DNA of 64,000 nt from Heterodontus francisci (Eukaryota): assembly GCF_036365525.1 (NCBI RefSeq), contig NC_090377.1, positions 104,932,907 through 104,996,906 of the forward strand. Direction: 5' to 3'. Below the pieces are notes generated by a model that saw nothing but the letters and a program-made list of their open reading frames with translations, searched no databases and had not been told where the DNA came from. Of this stretch, positions 5,521 to 64,000 are shown in pieces; the stretch's first letter is position 1, and each line of letters starts with the position of its first letter. Position numbers and translations under genes: made by a program.

Positions 5521-6900
5521 TCCTGAATCCCACTCAGACCCCCTTAGCCGATCTTCAACAGACCTCTTTGCCAGCAAGCTGTTGCGCCTTGGCGTTTACA
5601 TTATAATGGAGCTCAATACTGGGGGCACTTCAGGCCTCACCATTCAGGCACAGTGAATAAACTCTGTGCTGATGTTCATATGTTGTGATCCTGATCCGTT
5701 AGTTTACTCAAGGGCAGTAGGTCAATTGTTTTAATTTTAGCTGAGGAAGGAAAAATCCCAGAGGTAACAAGTTTCATAGGATCAGTTTTTTTTTATATCC
5801 CATCTATGCACCCCTTATTTGTTAATCAACAAGATTTGTGTAAGCTGTCTTTGGACATCGACCTCCCTGTTTAAAAAAATAATCTCTGACGACATATTGG
5901 AATTTCCCAAATGGGAGTGATTTTCTTGCAGTCAGCACAATTTCAATTATTTTCACTCAGTGATAGTCCCAGATGCTAAGAATCTTGATAACCAAGGTAA
6001 GCGACATAAAATGTGCTTTAGCCTAGTTAAACTTGTTTTGCAGTATTTTAACACGTTAATTTAAGGTGTTTGCAAGATAGTAAAAAAAGTCGGAAAAGTG
6101 TTCCGAGGAGTGATGTAATTTTTTGAACCAATACTTAAATTAATTGTGTAAAAATACAGGAATCAAGGCTTTTATGGAGAAAAGGGAAGCACAATGCAGC
6201 ATTTGTTTGTTTCACAGATGGTGTCAAGATGATGATTAAGTCACTGTTGAAACAATAATTATTGACATTGTGGCGCTGTTATAACATTCAAATCCACAGT
6301 AAGTGTGGTAATTTCAAATGTAAGATGTTCTTTGCATGCTCTTCCAATTCCTGCAGCTGGAGCAAACTGCTCATTTAAGTTTGAAATAGAGCTTATTTGA
6401 TCTATTAGAAAAGATCAATTAAGTAGGGATATGAGGACGTGGCTTGGGGGCAATCTAATACCAGTAATCTCCAATTCATGCATAAAAGTTCTTCCTTCAC
6501 TAGTGAGTGCATTAATGCTTGGCCTCATTTTGTGCCAAAACTGCCACTGATTTGACTAAAATATGCCTGCTCATCCCTTTCACAATTTGTACCTTTTTTT
6601 ATTGGACTATCCCAAAGGACAAAAACCATAATTATCAAAATTTTAGCTGTTTTCACACAGTGGTGATTGTAATCCTGAATAATTTTAATAAACATGACAG
6701 GTAACAGAAAATTTGCTTTTTGGCCTAATTAAACTTTTTTTTACCCTTATCCGTATATTACTTTAAGAAAGATCGTTACATTTCCTGATCACTGATATTA
6801 CATAATACTATATATTTTTTAAAATTTCAGTTTTGACATACCTTTTGTACTGATGAACATAACATTTAGCTATCCTTGTTCTCACACCGCGGGGAGGCAG

Positions 6901-6975
6901 TGGCGTAGTGGTATCATCACTGGACTAGTAACCCAGTGACCCAGGGTATTTCTCTGGAGACATGGGTTCGAATCC
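6901..6975 (+). promoter_or_regulatory. Internal type-2 RNA polymerase III promoter (tRNA-derived, possibly tRNA-Thr AGT)
   Basis: A box TGGCGTAGTGG 6901-6911; B box GGTTCGAATCC 6965-6975; hairpin TCACTGG/CCAGTGA with CTAGTAA anticodon-like loop. Confidence 0.8.
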
Positions 6976-7199
6976 CACCACAGCAGAAGGTGGAATTTGA
7001 ATTTAATTAATAAAAACCTGGAATTAAAAGCTAGTCTAATGATGGCCATAAAACCATTGTCGATTGTTGTAAAAACCCATCTGGTTCACTAATGTCCTTT
7101 AGGGAAGGAAATCTGCTGTCCTTACCTGATCTGGCCTACATGTGACTCCAGACCCACAGCAATGTGGTTAACTCTTACATGCCCTCTGAAATGGCCTAG

Positions 7200-10089
7200 C
7201 AAGCCACTCAGTTGTACCTAACCGCTACGAAGTCAATAAAAAGGAATGAAACCAGATGGACCACCCGGCATCGACCTAGGCACCGGAAACGGCAACAGCA
7301 AACCCAGCCCTGTCGACCCTGCAAAGTCCTCCTCACTAACATCTGGGGGCTTGTGCCAAAGTTGGGAGAGCTGTCCCACAGACTAGTCAAGCAACAGCCT
7401 GACATAGCCATACTCACGGAATCATACCTTGCAGACAATGTCCCAGACACTGCACTCACTATCCCTGGGTATGTCCTGTCCCACCGGCAGGACAGACCCA
7501 GCAGAGGTGGCGGCATAGTGGTCTACAGTAGGAAGGGAGTTGCCCTGGGAGTCCTCAACATCGACTCTGGACCCCATGAAGTCTCATGGCATCAGGTCAA
7601 ACATGGGCAAGGTAACCTCGTACTGATTACCACCTACCACCCTCCCTCAGCTGATGAGTCAGTACTCCTCCATGTTGAACATCACTTGGAGGAAGCACTG
7701 AGGGTGGCAAGGGCACAAAGTGTACTCTGGGTGGGGGACTTTAATGTCCATCACCAAGAGTGGCTCGGTAGCACTACTACTGACTGAGCTGGCCGAGTAC
7801 TAAAGGACATAGCTGCTAGACTGGGTCTGCAGCAGGTGGTGGGGGAACCAACACGAGGGAAAAACATACTTGACCTTGTCCTCACCAATCTGCCTGCCGT
7901 AGATGCTTCTGTCAATGACTGTATTGGTAGGAGTGACCACCGTACAGTCCTTGTGGAGCCGAAGTCCCGCCTTCACATTGAGGATAGCGTCCGTCGTGTT
8001 TTGTGGCACTATCACTGTGCTAAATGGGATAGATTTCAAACAGATCTAGCAATGCAAAAATGGGCATCCATGAGGCGCTGTGGGCCATCAGCAGCAGCAG
8101 AATTGTACTCGACCACAATCTGTGACCTCATGGCCTGGCATATCCCCCTTCTACCATTACCATCAAGCCAGGAGACCAACCCTGGTTCAATGAAGAGTGC
8201 AGGAGGGCATGCCAGGAGCAGCAACAGGTATACCTCAAAATGAGGTGTCAACCTGGTGAAGCTACAACAGAGGACTACTTGCATGCCAAACTGCATAAGC
8301 AGCATGCAGTAGACAGAGCTATGCAATCCCATAACCAACGGATCAGATCTAAGCTCTGCAGTCCTGCCACATCCAGTCGTGAATGATGGTGGACAATTAA
8401 ACAACTAACTGGAGGACGTGGCTCCACAAATATCCCCATCCTCAATGATGGGGAAGCCCAGCACATCAGTGCGAAAGATAAGGCAGAAGCATTTGCAACA
8501 ATCTTCAGCCAGAAGTGCCGGGTTGACGATCCATCTCAGCCCCCTCCTGAAGTCCCCAACATCACAGATGCCAGACTTCAGCCAATTCGATTCACTCCGC
8601 GTGATATCAAGAAACGACTGAAGGCACTGGATACTGCAAAGGCTATGGGTCCTGACAATGTTCCGGCAATAGTACTGAAGACATGTGTTCCAGAACTTGC
8701 CGCACCCCCAGCCAAGCTGTTCCAGTATAGCTATGACATTGGCATCTACCCGGCAATGTGGAAAATTGCCCAGGTATGTCCTGTACACAAAAAGCAGGAC
8801 AAATCCAACCGGACCAATTACCGCCCCATCAGCCTACTCTCAATCATCAGTAAAGTGATGGAAGGTGTCATCAACAGTGCCATCAAGCAGCACTTAACCT
8901 GCAATAACCTGCTCAGTGATGCTCAGTTTGGGTTCCACCAGGGCCACTCAGCTCCTAACCTCATTACAGCCTTGGTTCAAACATGGACAAAAGAGCTGAA
9001 CTCAAGAGGCGAGGTGAGAGTTACTGCCCTTGACATCAAGGCAGCATTTGACCGAGTATGGCATCAAGGAGCCCTAGCAAAACTGGAGTCAATGGGAATC
9101 AGGGGGAAAACACTCTGCTGGTTGGAGTCATACCTAGTGCAAAGGAAGATGGCTGTGGTTGTTGGAGGTCAGTCATCTGAGCTCCAGAACATCACTGTAG
9201 GAGCTCCTCAGGATAGTGTCCTCGGCCCAACTATCTTCAGCTGCTTCATCAATGACCTTCCTGCAATCATAAGGTCAGAAGTGGGGATGTTCGCTGATGA
9301 TTGCACAATGTTCAGCACCATTCGTGACTCCTCAGATACTGAAGCAGTCCGGGTAAAAATGCAGCAAGGCCTGGACAATATCCAGGCTTGGGCTGATAAG
9401 TGGCAAGTAACATTTGTGCCACACAAGTGCCAGGCAATGACCATCTCCAACGAGAGAGAATCTAACCATCTCCCCTTGACATTCAATGGCATTACCATTG
9501 ACCAGAAACTGAACTGGAGTAGCCATATAAATACCATGGCAATAAGAGCAGGTCAGAGGCTAGGAATCCTGCAGCGAGTAACTCACCTCCTGACTCCCCA
9601 AAGCCTGTCCACCATCTACAAGGCACAAGTCTGGAGTGTGATGAAATACTCTCCACTTGCCTGGATGGGTGCAGCTCCAACAACACTCAAGAAGCTCGAC
9701 ACCCCATCCAGGGCAAATCGGCCCCCTTGATTGGCACACCATCCACTAACATTCACTCCCTCCACCACTGATGCACAGTGGCAGCAGTGTGTACCATCTA
9801 CAAGATGCACTGCAGCAATGAACCAAGGCTCCTTAGACAGCACCTTCCAAACCAGCGACCTCTACCACCTCGAAGGACAAGAGCAGCAGATGTATGGGAA
9901 CATCACCACCTGCAAGTTCCTGTCCAAGTCACACAGCATCCTGACTTGGAACTATATCGCCGTTCCTTCACTGTCGCTGGGTCAAAATCCTGGAACTCCC
10001 TTCCTAACAGCACTGTGGGTGTACCTACCTCACAAGGACTGCAGCGGTTCAAGAAGGCAGCTCACCACCACCTTCTCAAGGGCAATTAG
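7200..10089 (+). pseudogene. Disrupted endonuclease-reverse transcriptase ORF
   Basis: APE: TNIWGL, DIAILTESYL, RGGG, GDFNVHH, LDLVLT, SDH; RT: NYRPISLL, QFGF, LDIKAAFDRV, GAPQDSVLGP, FADD; stops at 7785 and about 8385, frameshifts near 8150 and 9705. Confidence 0.9.
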
Positions 10090-12395
10090 GGATGGGCAAT
10101 AAATGCTGGCCTAGCCAGAGACGCTCACATCCCATGAATGAATAAAAGAAAACTTAGGCAGAAACCAATTTCCTTCAAAGTTCCATAAATTTCACTGTCC
10201 CTAGAATATAGTTGCCTAAACAATGAATGTGAAGATGTTTAGTAGAATTACAGGCACCATGCTCCAATAAAAAAATACATCTAGATCCCCTTAGTAATCT
10301 GAAACCTTGGAAAATGTACGACCTACTTTACTGACTATGGGCAGAAATTGAAATGCTTCATTGACCACTGCCATTTTCAATCTTTAATCAAAACCCTAAT
10401 TTGTATCATGTAATCTTTTCTAAATAATGTGCCAAATGTGTAGCCAAATAGTTGTTCTTCCCTTTGCAATTCCTTCATAGCAAATAATAATTTCCTGATT
10501 ACCGAACACTATCTAAAGATATGATTATTTTTTGTCTCAAGCTATGTTTTTTTTGGTGAAAATATATGTTTAAAAAAACCTATTTCGAACTTTAAAAAAC
10601 AGTTAGGTGTTTGTTAGCCTGAATTGCTGAGCTTGAATTACTTGGTCTCCTGGCATGATATTGTAAAGGGTTGGGGCTTTGATCCAAGGGATGTGCTTCA
10701 CTGGTTGCAATTAAAATTCTCGTCAGGGAGGATGTGTTGCCAACTCCCAACATGCCCTGAAACATGCAGCAATATCCTTTATAATGGTCATGAATCTGAC
10801 CACCGCCTCTCTGCACCACCCCCTCCCCACCGTATCCACCCAGCCTTCTAAATATTTCTGTGGTTGCTGAGCTGTTAACAATACAGCAAGAAAAATTTTC
10901 ACTTACATTAGCTTCTGACCCAGCCGAGGGAATTGGGTTTATATTTTTTGTCTGTGAGAGGGCTGAATCAGGCTACAATAGAATCACCATGCCATTTGAG
11001 AATACGAATTAAGCTGTGTAGTGTATCAGCTGGTAAGATTGTTTGGAAATGGCTATTTCTGAATTAGGAAGACCGTTTAGAACATAAGTAATTTTTTAAA
11101 AAACTATCTCCAAGGACAATGAGTTGCATTTTTAGTCTAACTGACGGAAATGATTTATTTTTCAGAGTACAGCTGATTTTTCAAATTAGAAAACGTGAAA
11201 GATCTGTTTGAAAGGTATGCTCCTCAATTCCTTCTGTACCATGATAATGGAGAACAATTGTTAAATCATTCACTGCCTTTAAAAATAAGGTACTATATAT
11301 TTGGTTGTTCATTGTACAGCAGTTTGTATTTAATGGTGAATATGTCTGTGATTGCATTTTCAAATCTGGAAGACTATATCCTGTCGGAGAGAAGTGACTC
11401 TAATCCTCATTATATTATTTTGTCAGGTTCACACATACCGTGTCAGACATCAGTGAGAGACCAAACGCTGTGAGAAACAAAATGGAGTATTGCATAGTTA
11501 ACTGGATATTGTAGGCTGATTATAAAGTGGCTTGTTACATATTAATTTTAAACATCTTCGTAAACCATAATGTTACCACCATAATTCAGTCAAGATGTTG
11601 GATTGCAATATGAACATTTTCAATTTGTTTTATGTAATTTTTGCCTTTCTGAAGTACTAAAATATTAAGCTAACTTGTATCAGATTGCCTGCATTAGAAA
11701 GATCTTGTTTTTCCTAAATGCAAAACATTTAATTTCCCATTACTTTCCATAGATCAGTTGAAGCTTCTGATTCTCGGTAGAAACATTCCCCTATGTCATT
11801 TTTAGAAATGTCCAATGGTCTTTGCTTGTTTGTGCCAAATTAAGGATTGTGATTTTTTTTTCCCCCTCTCGGCCCACCTCCCCTAATAAGTTTGGTATGG
11901 CTTATCATCTCTTTCCCTCTACTCCAAAATCGAGATATTCTACTTTTCCAATCTAGTTGTGCCTCTGCCTTGCAGCATTATGCATATGTAGATGAGAACA
12001 GGATTGAGTTCAGTTATGATGATCCCATAATCAAAGAACCATAAAATGAACATATAGGTGAGGTAAAAGAATTGCTTGAAACTGTACCATTGAATGAATC
12101 AACATTTTTTGAGAAAGCTGTAGAAAAGTAGGGAGGGGAAAATGGAATTTTATACTAATGCATTTAGCTGCATGTCATAAACAATAGCCGAGAAATTATT
12201 GTTAGCATTGTCAATGGACAATCAGTTAACACATTCTAATACTTCCTTCTGTGTTCTATTTTAGTGCATGTATTAACCCATGTGTTAATCCAGTGAAGAC
12301 TTGCTTAAAATAGTGGGTGTGGGAATTTCATACAAACATGCTAAACGTTCATTTGCTAATATTGGCGACCGTAATCTTTAACCTTTACCAGAAAT

Positions 12396-17569: not shown

Positions 17570-17905
17570 ACTGCCAAGGCTCCTTCAACAGCACCTTCCA
17601 AACCTGCAACCTCTACCATCTAGAAGGACAAGGGCAGCAGATACATGGGAACACCATCACCTGCAAGTTCCCCTCCAAGCCACACACCATCCTGACTTGG
17701 AAATATATCGCCGTTCCTTCACTGTTGCTGGGTCAAAATCCTGGAACTCCCTTCCTGACAGCACTGCTGGTGTGCCTACACCCCAAGGACTGCAGTAGTT
17801 CAAGAAGGCAGCTCACCACCACCTTCTCAAGGACAATTAGGGATGGGCAATAAATGCTGGCCTAGCCAACGATGCCCACATCCCATGAATGAATTTAAAA
17901 AAAAA
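17570..17905 (+). mobile_element. 5'-truncated 3' end of the tRNA-headed LINE family
   Basis: Highly similar to 9822-10150 (PRLLQQHLPNLQPLP...SWNSLP). Confidence 0.9.
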
Positions 17906-18500: not shown

Positions 18501-20179
18501 CGGCACTTGGTAAGGAGGTGCCCTTGGCGCTGCGCAAGTGGCAGGGAGAATGTGCATGGCTTGGGCATTGACTGGGGTTGTCACCCCCTCCTTCCACCAT
18601 GGGAGCAGAAGAGTAGGGGGCAAGGCTGCCAATCACAATAGGATGGCTATCTGTCCAAAAGGAAGGCTGCAGCTGGCACTGGGGGCATGACTGCCAGATT
18701 TTGGGCCCTGTGTCGATGAGGGGCAACACCCTCCGCAGGAGGGGTGGAACTCGGGCATCAGGAGGGCAAGGGAGAGGGAAGAGGGGCAGGAAGGCAACAG
18801 AGGCTATTACTTCAACACAGGATCTACTTCTGACGATGGAGCTACCTGGAGATGATGTAGACCTAGTGCTGCAGGAGACTGCGCCTCACCAGGCAGATGG
18901 TCACAGAGATCTGCACCTCATCACTGAACACCTCACAGCACCGGTTGCCGTGCCCTGCTAGTGGCTATCATAGTCACTGTGGCCTTGAGCTTCAGCTGGG
19001 GACCTTAATGACATCTTGCAAACCGCTGCCACTACTGCATCTAACTGGTCACTGATGCCCTCTTTGCCAGAGCTGGATAGTACATTTATTTCACAACAGA
19101 CACGGCCTCGCAGGGACAGAAGGCATTGGGTTTTGTCACCATCACTGGACTCTCCGAGGTGCAGGCCATCATCAATTGCACCCAAGTGACCATCAAGGCA
19201 CCCATTTGGTAGGCCAGTGAAATTCATCAACGGGAAGGGCATCCACTCCCTCAATGTCCAACTGGTCTGCGACCACAACACGAGCTTCCTCCACGTGTGC
19301 ACTCGTTTTCTTAGCAATTGCCATGACTCCTTCATCCTCTGCCAGTCTGTGCTGCCTCAGATCTTCACTCCATCCCCAAAGTACGTGGATGGATCCTCAT
19401 GGACAAGGGATGTCACTTTAAGACATGGCTGCTAACCACTCTACGGGAGACCCAGGTAGAGGCACAGAGGCGATACAACCAATGCCACCTGTTCAGTAGG
19501 CCAACCATTGAGCAGGCCATCCAGCTTCTGAAGATGCGATTCTGGTGCCTGGACCAGTCGGGTGGTGCCTCCAGTACCCTCCTGCAAGGGTCTCTGACAT
19601 TGTTGTGGTCTGTTGTATTCTCCATAACATGGCCCTCCAGAGAGGTATGGACCTTGAGGACGGTGAAGCCCTAGAAGATGACACTTCCTGCTCATACCTG
19701 ATGAGAGAGAGGAGGAGGAATTGGAGGTTGAGGGAGATGACACTGAAGAAGTGCTGCTGTTGAATGCCAACGTAGCCTCTGGCCTGCCACCCTTCGGAAG
19801 AGGGCTTCTATCCTTCATGGCCTTGAGCATTAGATCCAAGTTGGCATTGATGAAGTGAGGGGTTGCCCTGCCCTGTGTGCCAGGCTTGGGCTCCCCTGCG
19901 ACATCTCCCTTCCCTCTAGTGCAGTGGCAGGTTTTGGCACGAACCACATATCTCTCCCTCAGGACAACCAGCAGCCTCAATGATGGGGAGTCTTAAATCA
20001 TTCCCAAACTTCATCTGACCCACCACAGGCTCTAATTGGATAGGAAACTGTCTCCATATGAACTAAGGGCTCATTCTCGTGAAAATCTTAGCTTTAATCA
20101 GATTCCCACGCGAGGAAGGTTTCTGACCAGAAAAGAAACCTGCCTCCTATTTCCTGCCTGCGTGGTGAGAATTCTGCCC
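18500..20179 (+). mobile_element. PIF/Harbinger-type DNA transposon remnant
   Basis: Contains transposase remnant; ends in GAGAATTCTGCCC resembling TIR at 51408; left end not found. Confidence 0.7.
18800..19760 (+). pseudogene. Decayed HARBI1-like DDE transposase
   Basis: FINGKGIHSLNVQLVCDH, CHDSFIL, DKG, RRYN, TIEQAIQLLKMRF.CLD, CCILHN motifs across several frames. Confidence 0.85.
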
Positions 20180-20224
20180 CCGATCCATTTGAGAAGGCTT
20201 TATCATTTGGCAAATGTAGAGTGC

Positions 20225-21490
20225 CCACCAAAGCTACTAAGTATCATCACCTCATTCCATGACAATATGAAAGGCACAATTCAGCATAGCGGCGCCTCGT
20301 CAGACCCCTTTCCTATCCTGGATGGCGTGAAACAGGGCTGTGTTCTCGCACCTACACTGTTTGGGATCTTCTTCTCCCTGCTGCTCTCACATGCGTTCAA
20401 GTCTTCAGAAGAAGGAATTTTCCTCCACACGAGATCAGATGGCAGGTTGTTCAACCTTGCCCGTCTAAGAGCGAAGACCAAAGTTCAGAAAGTCCTCATC
20501 AGGGAACTCCTCTTTGCTGACAATGCTGCATTAACATCTCACACTGAAGAGTGTCTGCAGAGTCTCATCGACAGGTTTGTGGCAGCCTGCAACGAATTTG
20601 GCCTAACCATCAGCCTCAAGAAAATGAACATCATGGGATAGGACGTCAGAAATGCTCCATCCATAAATATCGGCGGCCACACTCTGGAAGTGGTTCAAGA
20701 GTTCACCTAACTAGGCTCAACTATCACCAGTAACCTGTCTCTCGATGCAGAATTCAACAAGCGCATGGGAAAGGCTTCCTCTGCTATGTCCAGACTGGCC
20801 AAGAGAGTGTGGGAAAATGGCACACTGACACAGAACACAAAAGTCCAAGTGTATCAAGCCTGTGTCCTCAGTACCTTGCTCTATGGCAGCGAGGCCTGGA
20901 CAACGTACGTCAGCCAAGAGCGACGTCTCAATTCGTTCCATCTTCGCTGCCTCCGGAGAATCCTTGGCATCAGGTGGCAGGACCGTATCACCAACACAGA
21001 AGTCCTCGAGGCGGCCAACATCCCCAGCATATACACCCTACTAAGCCAGCGGCGCCTGAGATGGCTTGGCCATGTGAGCCGCATGGAAGATGGCAGGATC
21101 CCCAAAGACACATTGTACAGCGAGCTCGTCACTGGTATCAGACCCACCAGCCATCCTTGTCTCCGCTTTAAAGATGTCTGCAAACATGACATGAAGTCCT
21201 GTGACATTGATCACAAGTCGTGGGAGTCAGTTGCCAGCGATCGCCAGAGCTGGCGGGCAACCATAAAGGCAGGGCTAAAGCGTGGCGAGTCGAAGAGACT
21301 TAACAGTTGGCAGGAAAAAAGACAGAAGCACAAGGAGAGAGCCAACTGTGTAACAGCCCCGACAACCAATTTTATCTGCAGCACCTGTGGAAGAGTCTGT
21401 CACTCTAGAATTGGCCTTTATAGCCACTCCAGGCGCTGCTTCACAAACCACTGACCACCTCCAGACTCTCTCGAGTCAAGGAGGCCAAAG
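20225..21490 (+). mobile_element. 5'-truncated RTE-clade LINE with 12-bp TSD
   Basis: GVKQGCVLAPTLF, LLFAD, LLYGSEAW, RLRWLGHV, C-terminal CxxC..H finger; same frame with two stops (20639, 20708); AATGTAGAGTGC at 20213-20224 and 21491-21502. Confidence 0.92.
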
Positions 21491-35129: not shown

Positions 35130-38100
35130 GAATGAGTGGCTGCAGGGCATTCTGAGGGAGGGAGAGTGAAAGCCAGAGGCCGTGGTCCGTATCATCACCA
35201 ATGGCATAGGCACAAAGAGGGATGAGGGCCTGCGGCAGAGTATAGGAAGCTAGGACAGAGATTGAAAAGCAGGACCTCAAAGGTAGTAATCTCCGGATTA
35301 TTCCCAGTGCCACATGATAGTGAGTACAGAAACAGGAAGATAGAGCTGATGAATACGTGACTGGAGAGATGGTGCAGGAGGGAGGGCTTTAGATTCCTGA
35401 GGCATTGGGGCTGCTTCTAGGGGAGATGTGATCTATACAAGCTAAACTGGTGACACCTCAACAGGACCAGGACCAATATCCTTACAGGGGGTTTTGCGGG
35501 TGCTGTTGGGAAGGATTTAAACTAGCTTGACAGGGGGATGGGAATCTGAGAGTAGATTCAGAAGGAAGAGAAGAAATGTTCGAAATGGAAGGCAGAAAAT
35601 TAGTAAGTGTGTTTGGAATGCAGAGGAAACAAAGGCGAGAGAATAGACAACAAGGGAGTTTGGCGGTGCTAAATGGTGTATACTTAAATGCAGGAAGTTT
35701 ACGGACTAAGACAGATGAGCTCAGAGCACAGATTGACACAGGGGAGTATGATAGTATGGTGATTACTGAGACATAGCTGAAAGAAGGGCAGAAATGGCAC
35801 CTCAACATTCCTGGTTACAAGGTTTCCAGATGCGATAGAGAGAGGATTAAAAAAAGGAGAGGGAGTCACATTATCGATTAAAGACACAATTATAGCTGTG
35901 AGGAGGGATGATATGGGAGAAGGATTATCAAATGTGGCCATATGCGTTGAACTGAAGAACAAGAAAAGGCAATCACACCACTGAGAGTGTACTATAGATA
36001 CTATAGATCCCCAAACAGTCAGAGGGAGATATGTAGGCAAATCTCTGAGAAGTACATCAACAATAGGGCAGTAATAGTGGAGGATTTCAACTACCCTAAT
36101 ATTAACTGAGATAGAATTAGTGTAAAAGGCACAGAGGGAGCAGAGTTCTTAAAATGCATTCAGGAAAACTCTTTTAGCCAGTATGTAGCAAGCCCAACAA
36201 GAGAGGAGGCAGTTCTGGACTTAGTTTTAGGGAATGAAGCTGGACAGGGTGAAGAGATATCAGTTGGAGAGCATTTTGGCAGATGTGATCATAATTCAGT
36301 TAGATTTAGGGCATTATGGAGAAGGATAAAGATAGAGTAGGAATAAAAGTTCTCAATTAGGAAAAAGCTAATTTTGCGAAGCTGAGGCGTGATTTAGCTA
36401 AGGTGGACTGGAAGCAGCTACTTCAAGTGCCAGATGAGTGGGAGGTATTCAGGAAGAGATAGTGAGGGTTCAGAACAAGTATGTTCCCTTGAAGAAAAGG
36501 GGTGGGACTAACAAATTCAGAATCCCTGGATCTAAAGTGGCTTAAAGGAGAGAATAAAGGAAAAAGGGAAGCTTATGACGTTACAGGGGCTCAGTACTGC
36601 AGAAATCCTAGAGGAGTATTAAAAATGTAGAGATGAAATTAAAAAGGAAATTAGGAAAGCAAAGAGAGGACATGAAAAAATATTGGCAAGTAAAATCAAG
36701 GAATAACCAAAGATTTTTTTATAAATACATAAAGAGCAAGATAATAACTAAAGAAAGAGTAGGGTCTGTTGGGGACCATAAGGGTAACTTGTGTGTGGAA
36801 GCGGAGGACGTTGGTATGGTTCTTAATGAATACCTTGCGTCTGTTTTCACAAAGGAAAGGGCTGACAGAGACATTGCAATCGGGGGGAGGAATGTGAAAT
36901 ATTAGATGAAATTACCATAGTTGGAGAGGAAGTATTAAGGGGTTTAACTTCTTTGAAAGTGGATAAATCCCCAGATCCAGATAACATTTATCCTAGGCTG
37001 TGAAGCGAAGCAAGAGAAGAAATAGTGGAGGCTCTGACCATCATATTCCAATCCTCTCTGGCTGTAGGCTTGGTACCAGAGGACCTGAGGACAGTTAGCA
37101 TTGTGCCATTGTTTAATAAAGGAGAAAGGGATAGACTGAGTAATTACAGGCCTGTCAGCCTAACCTCAGTGATGGGAAAATTATTGGCAAAAATTCTGAG
37201 GGACAGGATAAATCTTCATTTAGAAAGGCACAGTTTAATCAAAGACAGTCAGCATGGATTTGTTAAGGGAAGGTCGTGTCTGACTAACATGATTAAATTT
37301 TTTGAGGAGGTAACAGGGAGGGTCAATGAGGGTAGTGCATTTGATGTAGTTTATATGGATTTTAGCAAGGTTTTTGATAAGGTTCCACATGGCAGACTGG
37401 TCATGAAAGTAAAAGCTCATGGGATCCAAGGCAAAGTGGCAAGTTGGATCCAAAATTGTCTCAGAGCCAGGAAGGAAAGGGTAATGGTGGATGGGTGTTT
37501 TTATGACTGGAAGGCTGTTGCCATTGGGGTTTCGCAGGGCTCAGTTACTAGTTCCCTTGCTTTTTGTGGTATATATAAATGATTTGGTTTTGAATGTAGG
37601 GTACATGATTAAGAAGTGTGCAGAAAATAGAAAAATTGGTCGTGGAGTTAATAATGAAGAAAAAAACTGTAGAGTGCAGGAGGATATTACTAGACTAGCC
37701 AGATGGGTGGAAAAGTGACTAATGGAGTTCCATCTGGAGAAATGTGAGGTAATGCATTTGGAGAAGGCTAACAAGGCAAGTGAATACGCAATAAGTGGTA
37801 GGATACCGAGAAGTGTAGAGGGACAGCGGGACCTTGGAGTGCATGTCCACAGATCCCTGAATGTGTTTGGGCAGGTAGATACAGTGGTCAAGAAGTAATA
37901 TGGGATACCTGCCTTTATTAGCCGAGGCATAGAATATAAGAGCTAGGACTAGGAGGCTATGCTGCAACTGTATAAAACACTAGTTAGGCCACAGCTGGAG
38001 TACTGCATGCAGTTCTGGTCACTGTACTATAGGAAAGATGTAATTGCAGTAGAGAGGTACAGAGGTGATTTAGTTATGAGGAAAGATTGGATAGGCTTGG

Positions 38101-38520
38101 GTTGTTTTCTTTGGAACAGAGGAAGTTGAGGGGAGACCTAATTAAAGTGTGTAAAATGATGAGGGGTCCAGATAAGTTGTATCGGAAAGCAATGTTCCCT
38201 TTGGTTGAGGGATCCATGAGGAGGCGGCACAGATTTACAGTAAGAGGTAGAAAGTTTAGAGGGGATTTGAGGGGAATGTTTTTCACCCAGAGGGTGCTGG
38301 GATCTAGAACTCAGCCTGAAAGGGTGGTAGAGGCAAAATCCCTCATAACATTTAAAAAGTACTTGGATATGCACTTGAAGTGCCATAACCTACAAAGAGG
38401 ACCAAGAGTTGGAAAGTGGGATTAGGCTGGATGGTGACTTGTTGGCTGGTTTGGACACAGTGAGCCGAATGGCCTCCTTCCATGCTGTGAATTTCTAATG
38501 TTCTATAATTCTATGATTCT
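35130..38520 (+). mobile_element. Near full-length decayed CR1 (partial SGNH-esterase ORF1 plus ORF2)
   Basis: RLKSRTSKVVISGLFPVP, WCRREGFRFL (ORF1); YLNAGSL, ITET, DFNYP (EN); NYRPVSLTSV, QHGFVKGRSCLTN, YMDFSK (RT); TTCTATGATTCT tail. Confidence 0.92.
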
Positions 38521-50335: not shown

Positions 50336-51408
50336 GGGCTGAATTTTCATTCCAGGGCCTTGATCCCGACACCGGGCTGAATTCTGGGTCGGAATTCCAG
50401 ACGTGGCCGTGGCAGGATGCTGGAAAAGATTTTTGAGGACCCGGCCAATTAAGAGGCCGCCATCGGGAGCCCCATCCAATTAAGGACAGCGAGTGGGCAA
50501 TGGGAGCCCCTGATGCTCTGGGCAGCTGACAGTTTCACCGGGCATGGTAGGCACTGCCACTGTAGGTGGGGGACCGTGAGGGCACCTCAAGAGAGAAGTG
50601 CCCTTTGAAGACCTATAAATGATACAAATTATACAGCGGCCACAGCTGCCAAACCATCATAGAGGAGGGGGAACCCCTCCACAGGATGGCCAGCGGCCAT
50701 GGCTGAGTCCCTTGCAGTTCAGTGGACCCTGCTGGGCTGCTTTGCAGGATGCCACCATGCCATCCACAGGCTCCAGCCATATCAGGGGACCCGATTTTCC
50801 AGGCGGTGTGTGAAGACTGCCTTCAGTTGGTACTTTAATTGGCCTAATTGGGAAGGTCGTTGCATAGTGGTAATGTTACTGGACTAATAATCCAGAGCTC
50901 AGGCTAATGCTCTGGGGACATGGGTTCGAATCCCGCCATGGCAGATGGTGAAATTTGAATTCAATTAATAAATCTGGAATTAAAAGCAAGTCTAATTGTG
51001 ACCATGAAACCATTGTCGATTGTTGTAAAAACCCATCTGGTTCACTAATGTCCTTTAGGGAAAGAAATCTCCCGTCCTTACCTGGCCTGGCCTACATGTG
51101 ACTCCAGACCCACAGCAATGTGGTTGACTCTTAAAATGCCCTCTGAAATGGCCTAATAGTCCACTCAGTTGTCAAGGGCAATTCGGGATGGGCAACAAAT
51201 GTTGGCCTAGTCAGCGACGTCCACATCCCACAAACAAATAAAAAAAAAATTGGCTACCGACAGCTGACGGGCTGTCACCACTGCGCCCCCACCTCCCTGA
51301 AAATAGGCTGGAGGTGGGAACTTGCTGGCAGACCGGCACAGTGGCCGGTAGTACGAAATTGCTAGCAAGCCCAACTTCAAACCTGCTTCCAGGATGAAAA
51401 TTCTGCCC
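50336..51408. mobile_element. GC-rich TIR element with AAT TSD
   Basis: GGGCTGAATTTTCAT / ATGAAAATTCTGCCC; AAT at 50333-50335 and 51409-51411; removal restores CR1 GGACACAATACTCC. Confidence 0.9.
50852..51248 (+). mobile_element. tRNA-headed SINE sharing both ends with the 6891 LINE
   Basis: Aligns to 6893-7214 then jumps to 10076-10150; AATTGG TSD. Confidence 0.9.
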
Positions 51409-53089: not shown

Positions 53090-53705
53090 GTGAAGTAATA
53101 GTGATATATTTCCAAGACAGGATAGAATGTGGATTGGAGGGGAACATGCAGATGGTGGGGTTTCCATGCACCTGCTGCCCTCGTACTTCTTGGTGGTAGA
53201 GGTTGCAGGCTTGGAAGATACTGTCGGAGGGGCCTTGACGAGTTGCTGCAGTGCATCTTGTATATTGTACGCACTGCAGCCACAGTAGTGGAGGAAATGA
53301 ATATTAATTTTATTTATTTATTTAAGATGGTAGATGTGATGCAGGCAAACAGGTTGCTTTGTTCTGGATGATGCTGAGCTTCCTGAGTGTTGTTGGAGCT
53401 GCACTCATCCAGGCAAGTGGAGAGTATTCCATCACACTGCTAACTTCTGCCTTGTAGATGGTGGACAGGCTTTGGGAAGTCAGGAGATGAATTACTCACA
53501 ACAGAATTCCCACTCTTTGACCTACTTGTATAATCACAGTATTTATGTGACAGGTCCAGTTAAGTTTCTAGTCAATGGTAATGCCCATGATGCTGATGTT
53601 GGGGAATTCAGCGATAGTAATGCTTTTGAATATTAAGGGGAGATAGTTAGATTCTCTTTTGTTGGAGATGGTCATTGCCTGTGACTTGTGTGGCACATAT
53701 GTTAC
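53090..53705 (-). mobile_element. Older internal fragment of the tRNA-headed LINE family
   Basis: AAVRTIYKMHCSNSSRPLRQYLP; corresponds to about 9410-9975. Confidence 0.8.
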
Positions 53706-54074
53706 TTAAGTTAAATATTACTTAAATGTTACAATTGTGTGGAACCAGGAGTGGGAATTCCCTGTGCTGAGAGTTCCACTTGCCCGATCCAACCTGGAAC
53801 AGAATAATAAGACTAGATTTTTAAAAAATTCTAGCTTGGTCTTCTTCCACAGGTGCCCATCGGGCACTTAGTTGAGTCTTACGAGAGGGGTTGTGGAGAG
53901 TGGGAGGCTAGCCTGGGCATTCCCCACTTCCTGATGTTGGCCAAGCACCATATTTCTCAGCAGCTTGGGGCAAGTGAGTACTGAAGATGCTGCAGTAATG
54001 TTGTTTGTGTCCACTGCCGCCATGCTAATTAGGTGACATCCCAGTAATCCTAGTGGTTTTGGTTCGATACCACA

Positions 54075-56184: not shown

Positions 56185-56586
56185 TTTTTTTTATTTGTTT
56201 ATGGAATATGGGCGTCGCTGGACAGCATTTATTGCCCATCCCCAATTGCCCTTGAACTGAGTGCTTGCTAAGCCATTTCAGAGGGCATTTAAGAGTCAAT
56301 CACATTACTGTGGGTCTGGAGTCACATGTAAGTCATATGTAGGCCGGACCAGGTAAGGACGGCAGAATTCCTTCCCTAAAGGACATTAGTGAACCAGATG
56401 GGTTTTTACAACGATCGACAATGGTTTCATGGTCATCATTAGACTAGCTCTTTAATTCCAGATTTATTAATTGAATTCAAGTTTCGCCATCTGTCACGGT
56501 GAGATTTGAACCCATGTTCCCAATGTACTAGCCTGGGCCTCTGCATTGCTAGTCTAGTGACGTTACCACTATGCCACCTCTTCCCC
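56185..56586 (-). mobile_element. tRNA-headed SINE, second copy
   Basis: Reverse complement of 50852 copy, same junction CACTCAGTTCAAGGGCAATT. Confidence 0.9.
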
Positions 56587-60269: not shown

Positions 60270-60575
60270 GAAGATTTGTTTCAGAAATGTTGTTTATATG
60301 GATTATAAGAAAGCCTTTGACAAACTACCACATAAAACCAAATTGAGATGCATGGAATAGGAGGGTCAGTGTCCGATTGGATAAAAAAAAAATGTCTAAA
60401 GGACAGAAACCAGTGAATCTTAGTAAATGGTTATTTTTCAGACTGGAGGATGGTAGACAGTGGTGTTCACCAAGGGTCATTGCTGGGGCCACTTTTTTTT
60501 TGCTATATATAACTGACTTGGATCTTGGAATACAGAGTAGAATCTCAAAATTTGCCAATGATACCAAACTTGAAG
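60270..60575 (+). mobile_element. Decayed CR1 RT fragment
   Basis: KAFDK, LYITDLDLG..ISKFANDTKL. Confidence 0.65.
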
Positions 60576-60597
60576 GACTGGACTGCCAGACAGCCAA

Positions 60598-60950
60598 GGT
60601 CGACACATTGGCCCAGTGGTTAGCACCGCAGCCTCACAGCTACAGCGACCCGGGTTCAGTTCAGGGTACTGCCTGTGCGGAGTTTGCACATTCTCCCTGT
60701 GACCGCGTGGGTTTCCGCCAGGTGCTCCGGTTTCCTCCCACAGCCAAAGACATGCAGGTTGATAAGTAAATTGGCCATTGTAAATTGCCTCAAATGTAGG
60801 TAAGTGGTAGGAGAATGGTTGGGATTTGGTAGGGACTATGGGATTAATGTAGGATTATTATAAATGGGTGGTTGTTGGTTGGCACAGACTCGGTGGGCCG
60901 AAGGGCCTGTTTCAGTGCAGTATCTCTAAATAAATAAAATAAATAAATAG
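60598..60950 (+). mobile_element. HE1-type V-SINE
   Basis: Same head, V domain and tail as other copies. Confidence 0.9.
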
Positions 60951-63799: not shown

Positions 63800-64000
63800 T
63801 TAAAATTCATTTCATGGGATGTGGGCATCGCTGGCCAGGCCAGCATTTATTGCCCATCCTTAATTGCCCATGAGAAGGTGGTGGTGAGCTGCCTTCTTGA
63901 ACAGCTGCAGTCCATGTGGGATAGGTAGACCCACAGTGCTGTTAGAAAGGGAGTTCCAGGATTTTGACCCAGCGACAGTGAAGGAATGGCAATATAGTTC
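63800..64000 (-). mobile_element. 3' end of the tRNA-headed LINE family (runs off window)
   Basis: Reverse complement of about 9950-10145. Confidence 0.9.

Follow-up and report, generated by a model that had tools for sequence, protein, structure and literature searches.

A tRNA-headed Zenon LINE of Heterodontus francisci avoids T-runs in its coding strand and may be transcribed by RNA polymerase III

The Zenon family of LINEs, a dead full-length copy of which lies at 6891–10152 in a window of 64,000 nucleotides of the Heterodontus francisci genome (the window being the whole stretch of DNA that was analyzed; coordinates are window positions on the + strand unless marked otherwise), avoids runs of T in its coding strand. 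The avoidance is real, family-wide, and selected. The element also starts with a tRNA-like head carrying putative A and B boxes, and we think it fairly probable that Zenon is a protein-coding LINE that RNA polymerase III (Pol III) transcribes, probably translated without an AUG. The stricter proposal, that the 3.3-kb Pol III RNA would itself be translated without an AUG into the 975-residue endonuclease-reverse transcriptase, with codons and phenylalanine content reshaped by terminator avoidance, we rate at even chances. The family is already published; its tRNA-type head and T-run avoidance appear to be undescribed, since we did not find them in the literature. A search confined to papers, mostly open-access ones, turned up neither an autonomous LINE reported to be transcribed by Pol III nor a Zenon described with a tRNA head.

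A Zenon LINE with a tRNA-like head

Elasmobranch Zenon LINEs are catalogued by Stuart et al. 2026 (PMC13343379), and the element at 6891–10152, which differs by ~4.7% from its family consensus, is by sequence a copy of that LINE. Its head and leader match the published Zenon rows of CarCar, RhiTyp, ScyCan, HypSab, and SquAca in a comparison made by eye of the first 400 letters of each consensus; the hagfish and coelacanth Zenon rows do not start with this head and leader, and runs of four or more T (T4+) are present in their visible 400 letters (also by eye). The element sequence gives 33,539 first-look candidates in the 6.0-Gb genome. APE endonuclease and reverse transcriptase (RT) domains (Pfam PF03372/PF14529/PF00078) share one ORF, family copies carry a poly-A tail, and ORF1 is absent, the 307-nt leader holding no ORF longer than 48 codons. 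In RT trees, which include no named Zenon protein, the element stands apart from the CR1 of the same genome and inside a 0.98–0.99 clade of unnamed proteins. Viral contigs searched for relatives gave none, and searches with old copies for a diverged second Zenon subfamily, wanted as a replicate, returned the main family only. Annotated shark and ray proteins P0005 and P0023 hold pieces 85–88% identical to the Zenon ORF, and these are probably gene models that swallowed a Zenon copy.

Full-length copies begin at a sharp common 5' boundary, and the flanks upstream are unrelated between loci. The copies start with a tRNA-like head (6891–6985), in which ARAGORN predicts a tRNA at 6897–6985; Rfam gives a tRNA-like match at a sub-threshold score only. 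A putative type-2 Pol III promoter would consist of an A box (TGGCGTAGTGG, 6901–6911) and a B box (GGTTCGAATCC, 6965–6975), assignments made against the box consensus, and the two boxes sit just inside the element 5' end, as in Pol III type-2 units. Judged by eye, both are kept in the published Zenon rows of the five species, with an imperfect B box in HypSab. Across genomic copies their conservation is at a neutral level and carries no information, and TATTT lies between the two boxes in many copies. The head is a part of the LINE itself, because 20 of 30 loci sampled from 6441 exact matches to a head motif run into the ORF (eight others are head-to-tail joins and two end early), and because 12 of 30 loci picked by a mid-ORF motif begin ≤35 nt from the head start. 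Target-site duplications of 5–6 nt that start with A overlap the A-tail in some full-length copies (L005, L015, L018, L021, L022, L023, and L028); none is evident at the window copy.

The 5' leader (6986–7213) is common to the LINE and to a SINE-like derivative that joins head to tail, with a junction near consensus position 321 (joints 7212>10076). Two such derivatives lie in the window, one at 50850–51248, where the family head and leader (1–325) are joined to the family tail, and one on the − strand at 56185–56586; these two, as well as L136, L140, L142, and L144, comprise the first ~321 nt and the last ~75 nt of the LINE, with a few recurring junctions. They resemble, at a similar size, the tRNA-headed shark SINE SacSINE1, and may be that element. 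The LINE itself falls outside the SINE2 class of tRNA-derived SINEs, being 3.3 kb long with a selected ORF; only the head-to-tail derivatives are short and noncoding. The window also holds a 5'-truncated 3' fragment of the family (17574–17905; 90%), an old decayed fragment (53090–53707, − strand; 72%), and a 3' fragment cut by the window end (63805–64000, − strand). Another tRNA-headed SINE, at about 60480–60770, is inserted in a CR1 fragment and resembles shark HE1.

The endonuclease-reverse transcriptase ORF

The single APE and RT ORF has ~975 codons in the family and spans 7200–10089 in the window copy, where it contains stops and frameshifts. In the family it is open from consensus position 308, and an in-frame ATG is absent before codon 285. 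A short ATG-initiated ORF of 46 codons (7246–7386) overlaps its start out of frame; this ATG is kept in 30/30 copies of our first set and in the published rows of five species (the latter by eye); it lies immediately ahead of the endonuclease start and may be a re-initiation or frameshift device. Damage to the window copy includes a 39-nt deletion (site 9497–9499) and a C-run one base short (8144–8148), a frameshift that is a minority state in the genome. The short C-run occurs in 26 of our first 30 loci. We considered that endonuclease and RT might be separated by a programmed frameshift, or by one carried throughout the family, and rejected this because the excess was a search bias: exact matches genome-wide number 171 for the short state and 9021 for the in-frame state.

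The ORF has been selected in the source lineages. Variants common to three or more copies comprise 44 synonymous and 34 other changes, against 646:1266 possible, whereas singleton variants are neutral (156:292); because the shared variants are enriched for synonymous changes and the singletons are not, the selection is purifying. Phenylalanine makes up 1.8% of the family ORF, the lowest content among the ORFs scored.

T-runs in the window copy and in the family

The initial annotation had noted a single sense-strand TTTT (7999–8002) in 6891–10152 beside roughly 16 runs of four or more A, and our count is one T4+ and 17 A4+. It had suggested that the one T4 may be a post-insertion mutation, which is supported, in that TTGT became TTTT by G>T at 8001: the consensus has G, as do 27/30 copies in each of two alignments and 4/4 public sequencing runs compared (of 24, all assembled contigs and one recorded as RNA). 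The family piece at 17570–17905 indeed has no T4, although it adds almost nothing, covering no more than the final 330 nt of the family. Taken by itself, the T4 deficit of this copy is weak evidence. Base shuffling predicts 4.9 runs (P=0.04) and dinucleotide shuffling 1.9 (P=0.40), and the deficit under the latter is weak because TT itself is depleted (observed/expected 0.70).

The family gives a clearer picture. Our first 30-copy consensus (3298 nt) has no T4 and eight T3, and 13/30 of its copies lack any T4. That sample was skewed to copies with the 1-base C-run deletion of the window copy (26/30), and because of this bias a second sample of 30 loci was picked by a short motif; its consensus also has no T4 in 2787 nt, and its copies hold 13 T4 and 262 A4 in 57,362 nt. 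Conserved sense T4 runs, which the initial annotation had named as grounds against its idea, are thus absent from both consensuses. A recurrent T4 at consensus position 1142 (6/30 copies) was set aside as CpG decay beside TTT.

Synonymous choice against T-runs

We permuted synonymous codons across the 975-codon ORF in 5000 shuffles that preserve codon usage. A zero T4 count with significant depletion had been put forward as the outcome that would support selection; the zero held and the significance did not, with 0 observed, 2.1 expected, and 425/5000 shuffles also at 0 (P=0.085). We therefore rejected the T4 count as sole proof, since it falls within the codon permutation as well as within the dinucleotide shuffle. 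Shorter and interrupted runs are strongly reduced: T3 occurs four times against 12.9 expected and cross-codon T3 not at all against 10.0 expected (0/5000 shuffles as low for either), and T4-or-TVT3 is at 0 against 4.1 expected (22/5000). All four remaining T3 are single Phe codons. The choice between T and C at third positions followed by a base other than G depends on context, T being used in 82/249, 27/121, and 1/35 cases for runs of 1, 2, and 3 or more (P=5e-5). Runs of A, C, and G show no depletion. TTT and TTTT are thus avoided by synonymous choice, on the sense strand only. In the 307-nt leader T3 is not depleted (2–4 against about 4 expected).

Host mutation is not run-dependent, with C>T at 0.030/0.024/0.025 and T>C at 0.020/0.017/0.021 across run contexts, and post-insertion C>T is no lower where the change would build a run. 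The strongest signal lies one step from the known terminator, because TTT is only a minor Pol III terminator; in B2 constructs, as reported in sections of PMC8466645, termination is 65% at TTTT, 42% at TATTT, and little at TTT.

Control and foreign ORFs

A comparison with other LINE families had been proposed by the initial annotation. Two control consensuses from the same genome, CR1 and RTE, both retain T4, unlike Zenon: CR1 has 14 T4 against 12.0 expected and 34 T3 against 35.6, and RTE has 2 T4 against 3.1, 12 T3 against 14.5, and 5 cross-codon T3 against 8.7 (81/1000). Codon-context use of T is flat in CR1 (0.54/0.49/0.62), in RTE (0.27/0.18/0.23), and in 74 pooled foreign ORFs. The CR1 at 35130–38520 had been described as rich in sense T4+, and we count 15; the accompanying caveat that this control is older loses its force, its 20-copy consensus keeping 14 T4 in 777 codons. 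The RTE-like control is a young LINE fragment in the window (20036–21454), 94–95% identical to other copies and with 9598 first-look candidates.

Metagenome controls comprised 80 loci; ORFs at least 300 codons long are present in 75 of these, and 74 could be matched and scored. None of these 74 CR1-group ORFs lacks T4, and their lowest T3 ratio is 0.53, against 0.35 for Zenon; the 11 T-poor foreign ORFs (T ≤22.5%) have 3–17 T4. Because no metagenome ORF in the tree fell inside the clade of the element, 48 more loci from GTDB genome contigs were added; 41 were scored, with 0/41 lacking T4, and four join the element in its 0.99 clade. These contigs (L310–L357), which carry non-LTR retrotransposon ORFs, probably hold DNA of the hosts that ended up in the MAGs of symbionts. 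ARAGORN returned negatives for 60 of 80 metagenome loci and for 5 of 48 GTDB genome-contig loci; these are weak because it detects only 10/30 true heads and many contigs have no 5' end.

Three of the clade relatives, L310, L311, and L312, show no avoidance, with 14, 5, and 28 T4. The fourth, L313, has one T4 against 3.9 expected, 15 T3 against 18.4, 2.2% Phe, and a composition similar to that of Zenon; its codon context is significant, at T in 8/52 against 75/206 (P=0.004), and weaker than in Zenon. T5 and T6 are present in its 3' UTR, and its 5' end is off the contig. No other result speaks as strongly against a cause specific to Pol III as the avoidance in L313. This Zenon-clade LINE (34–2895) lies in a bacterial MAG, likely as animal contamination, and has relatives (P0003/P0035–37) on contigs of ~3.16 kb.

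The 3' end

AATAAA (10098–10103) lies ~40 nt before the A-rich tail (10143–10152), which in the window copy has no adjoining T4+. Across 26,430 exact tail matches, T4+ stands directly before the A-tail, ~40 nt past AATAAA, in 4701 (17.8%) against a background of 8.7%, and may arise after insertion; 82% of tails have no T4 there. Run lengths in the first 100 tails (by eye) are non-geometric, with T1, T2, T3, T4, T5, T6, and T9 at 65, 14, 5, 5, 8, 2, and 1. Tails with T4+ are neither older nor younger (94.6 and 93.5% identity, 27 and 13 copies, P=0.58), and shorter A-tails go with longer T-runs (rho −0.38). B2 T-runs are reported to lengthen as A-tails age (PMC8466645, in part), and L312 and L313 also carry TTT before the A-tail. 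Given the lack of an age difference, the background, the B2 elongation, and the L312 and L313 tails, we set these runs aside as a Pol III termination footprint and leave them ambiguous; they would give some copies a terminator of their own, which is compatible with Pol III and is not counted as evidence.

Discussion

The initial annotation had attributed the scarcity of T4 to selection for Pol III read-through of a coding sequence. Selection on T-runs is borne out by T3, cross-codon T3, T4-or-TVT3, and codon context; that Pol III is the cause we infer to be likely, because of the tRNA head with its A and B boxes. In such a cycle TFIIIC and Pol III would start at the tRNA head and read the whole 3.3 kb, and the RNA would end at a T-run at or past the tail. 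In source elements that gain an internal T-run, the RNA would stop short of the 3' recognition tail, and such elements would leave no progeny. The A-tail would be templated, or else added in an AAUAAA-dependent manner like that of T+ SINEs. The RNA, probably uncapped, would be read by a non-AUG or re-initiation route, and the Zenon enzyme would also mobilize the short head-to-tail derivatives. Several observations speak against Pol III: the T4 count alone is nonsignificant, leader T3 is not depleted, TATTT lies between the boxes, L313 shows a weaker form of the avoidance, and most tails have no T4. The absence of an in-frame AUG, together with an uncapped 3.3-kb mRNA, also means that an unusual translation route would be needed.

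These observations have to be weighed against a Zenon transcribed by Pol II with a leader captured from a tRNA-SINE, in which some other pressure at the RNA level disfavors U-runs (decay, weak rU:dA hybrids in reverse transcription, or signals for splicing or for premature cleavage under Pol II), or in which their avoidance limits interference by a passenger Pol III promoter. AATAAA and an A-tail are general to Zenon (PMC13343379, in part), translation is easier from a capped RNA, the ORF and not the leader has the strongest avoidance, and L313 has a milder form of it. These pressures would be expected to act also on CR1 and RTE and on all 115 foreign ORFs, yet T4 is kept there. Moreover, the element 5' end coincides with the start of the tRNA head, with no conserved sequence upstream, and the A and B boxes persist across the five species. 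We regard this explanation as unlikely, though still deserving attention, in both its RNA-level and its interference forms.

A division of labor, in which Pol III makes the retrotransposed template and a few copies transcribed by Pol II from host promoters supply the protein, would account for T-run avoidance with no cap-independent translation, and the head-to-tail elements (8/30 head loci) suggest that the enzyme acts in trans. We think it improbable; purifying selection on the ORF would be maintained more readily with a single RNA that is both translated and copied, and the missing AUG is left unexplained under either reading. Most improbable, and already disfavored, is that no selection operates and that a low T content, a codon bias toward C endings, or a mutational bias accounts for the lack of T-runs. 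T is at 20%, the single copy is inside the dinucleotide shuffle, and T4 alone is inside the codon permutation, but a permutation preserving codon usage never reaches the observed T3, T-poor foreign ORFs carry T4, and host mutation is independent of run context.

The Pol III reading has parallels in R2 and L1. R2 is cotranscribed by Pol I and released through a ribozyme, whereas Pol II transcribes L1; R2 and L1 ORF2 offer precedents for RNA that is uncapped or not made by Pol II, and for AUG-independent translation of an RT. A 1995 paper reportedly concerned a functional mRNA made by Pol III, and another of that year is said to deal with Pol III and human L1. If the Pol III reading is true, Zenon would provide, in nature, a long Pol III RNA whose translation needs neither cap nor AUG, and would offer a route to SINE origin by deletion of a LINE already bearing a tRNA head. 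A compact element that has one ORF and carries its promoter internally could also be of interest for gene insertion. LINEs are conventionally Pol II-transcribed and coding, and SINEs Pol III-transcribed and noncoding (PMC5786205, in part), and a Pol III-driven coding LINE, if true, would break this polymerase split.

Among known systems, the closest is elasmobranch Zenon itself (PMC13343379), which shares the length of 3.2–3.3 kb, the absence of ORF1, the APE and RT domains, the A-tail, and the first 400 nt; the head and the T-run avoidance are undescribed in the main text of that paper, where tRNA and Pol III go unmentioned. Zenon of Lepidoptera and Persaeus, a partner derived from it by internal deletion (PMC6740152), are likewise a single-ORF LINE with an A-tail and a short head-to-tail derivative, but Persaeus, which bears the Zenon 5' UTR, is described in the relevant passages as having neither tRNA homology nor a Pol III promoter. 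The Deu-SINEs SacSINE1 and LmeSINE1 of shark and coelacanth differ in that sections of PMC5499810 assign their tail to L2-2_CM. The T+ SINEs B2, Dip, and Ves, as treated in parts of PMC8466645, also have a tRNA head, AATAAA, and a variable T-run followed by an A-tail, but they are short and noncoding, and T before the A-tail is found in L312 and L313 too. The T+ SINEs are polyadenylated by way of AATAAA followed downstream by a T-run terminator, together with beta and tau signals (PMC8466645); the Zenon family has the AATAAA, and the T-run in a minority of its tails.
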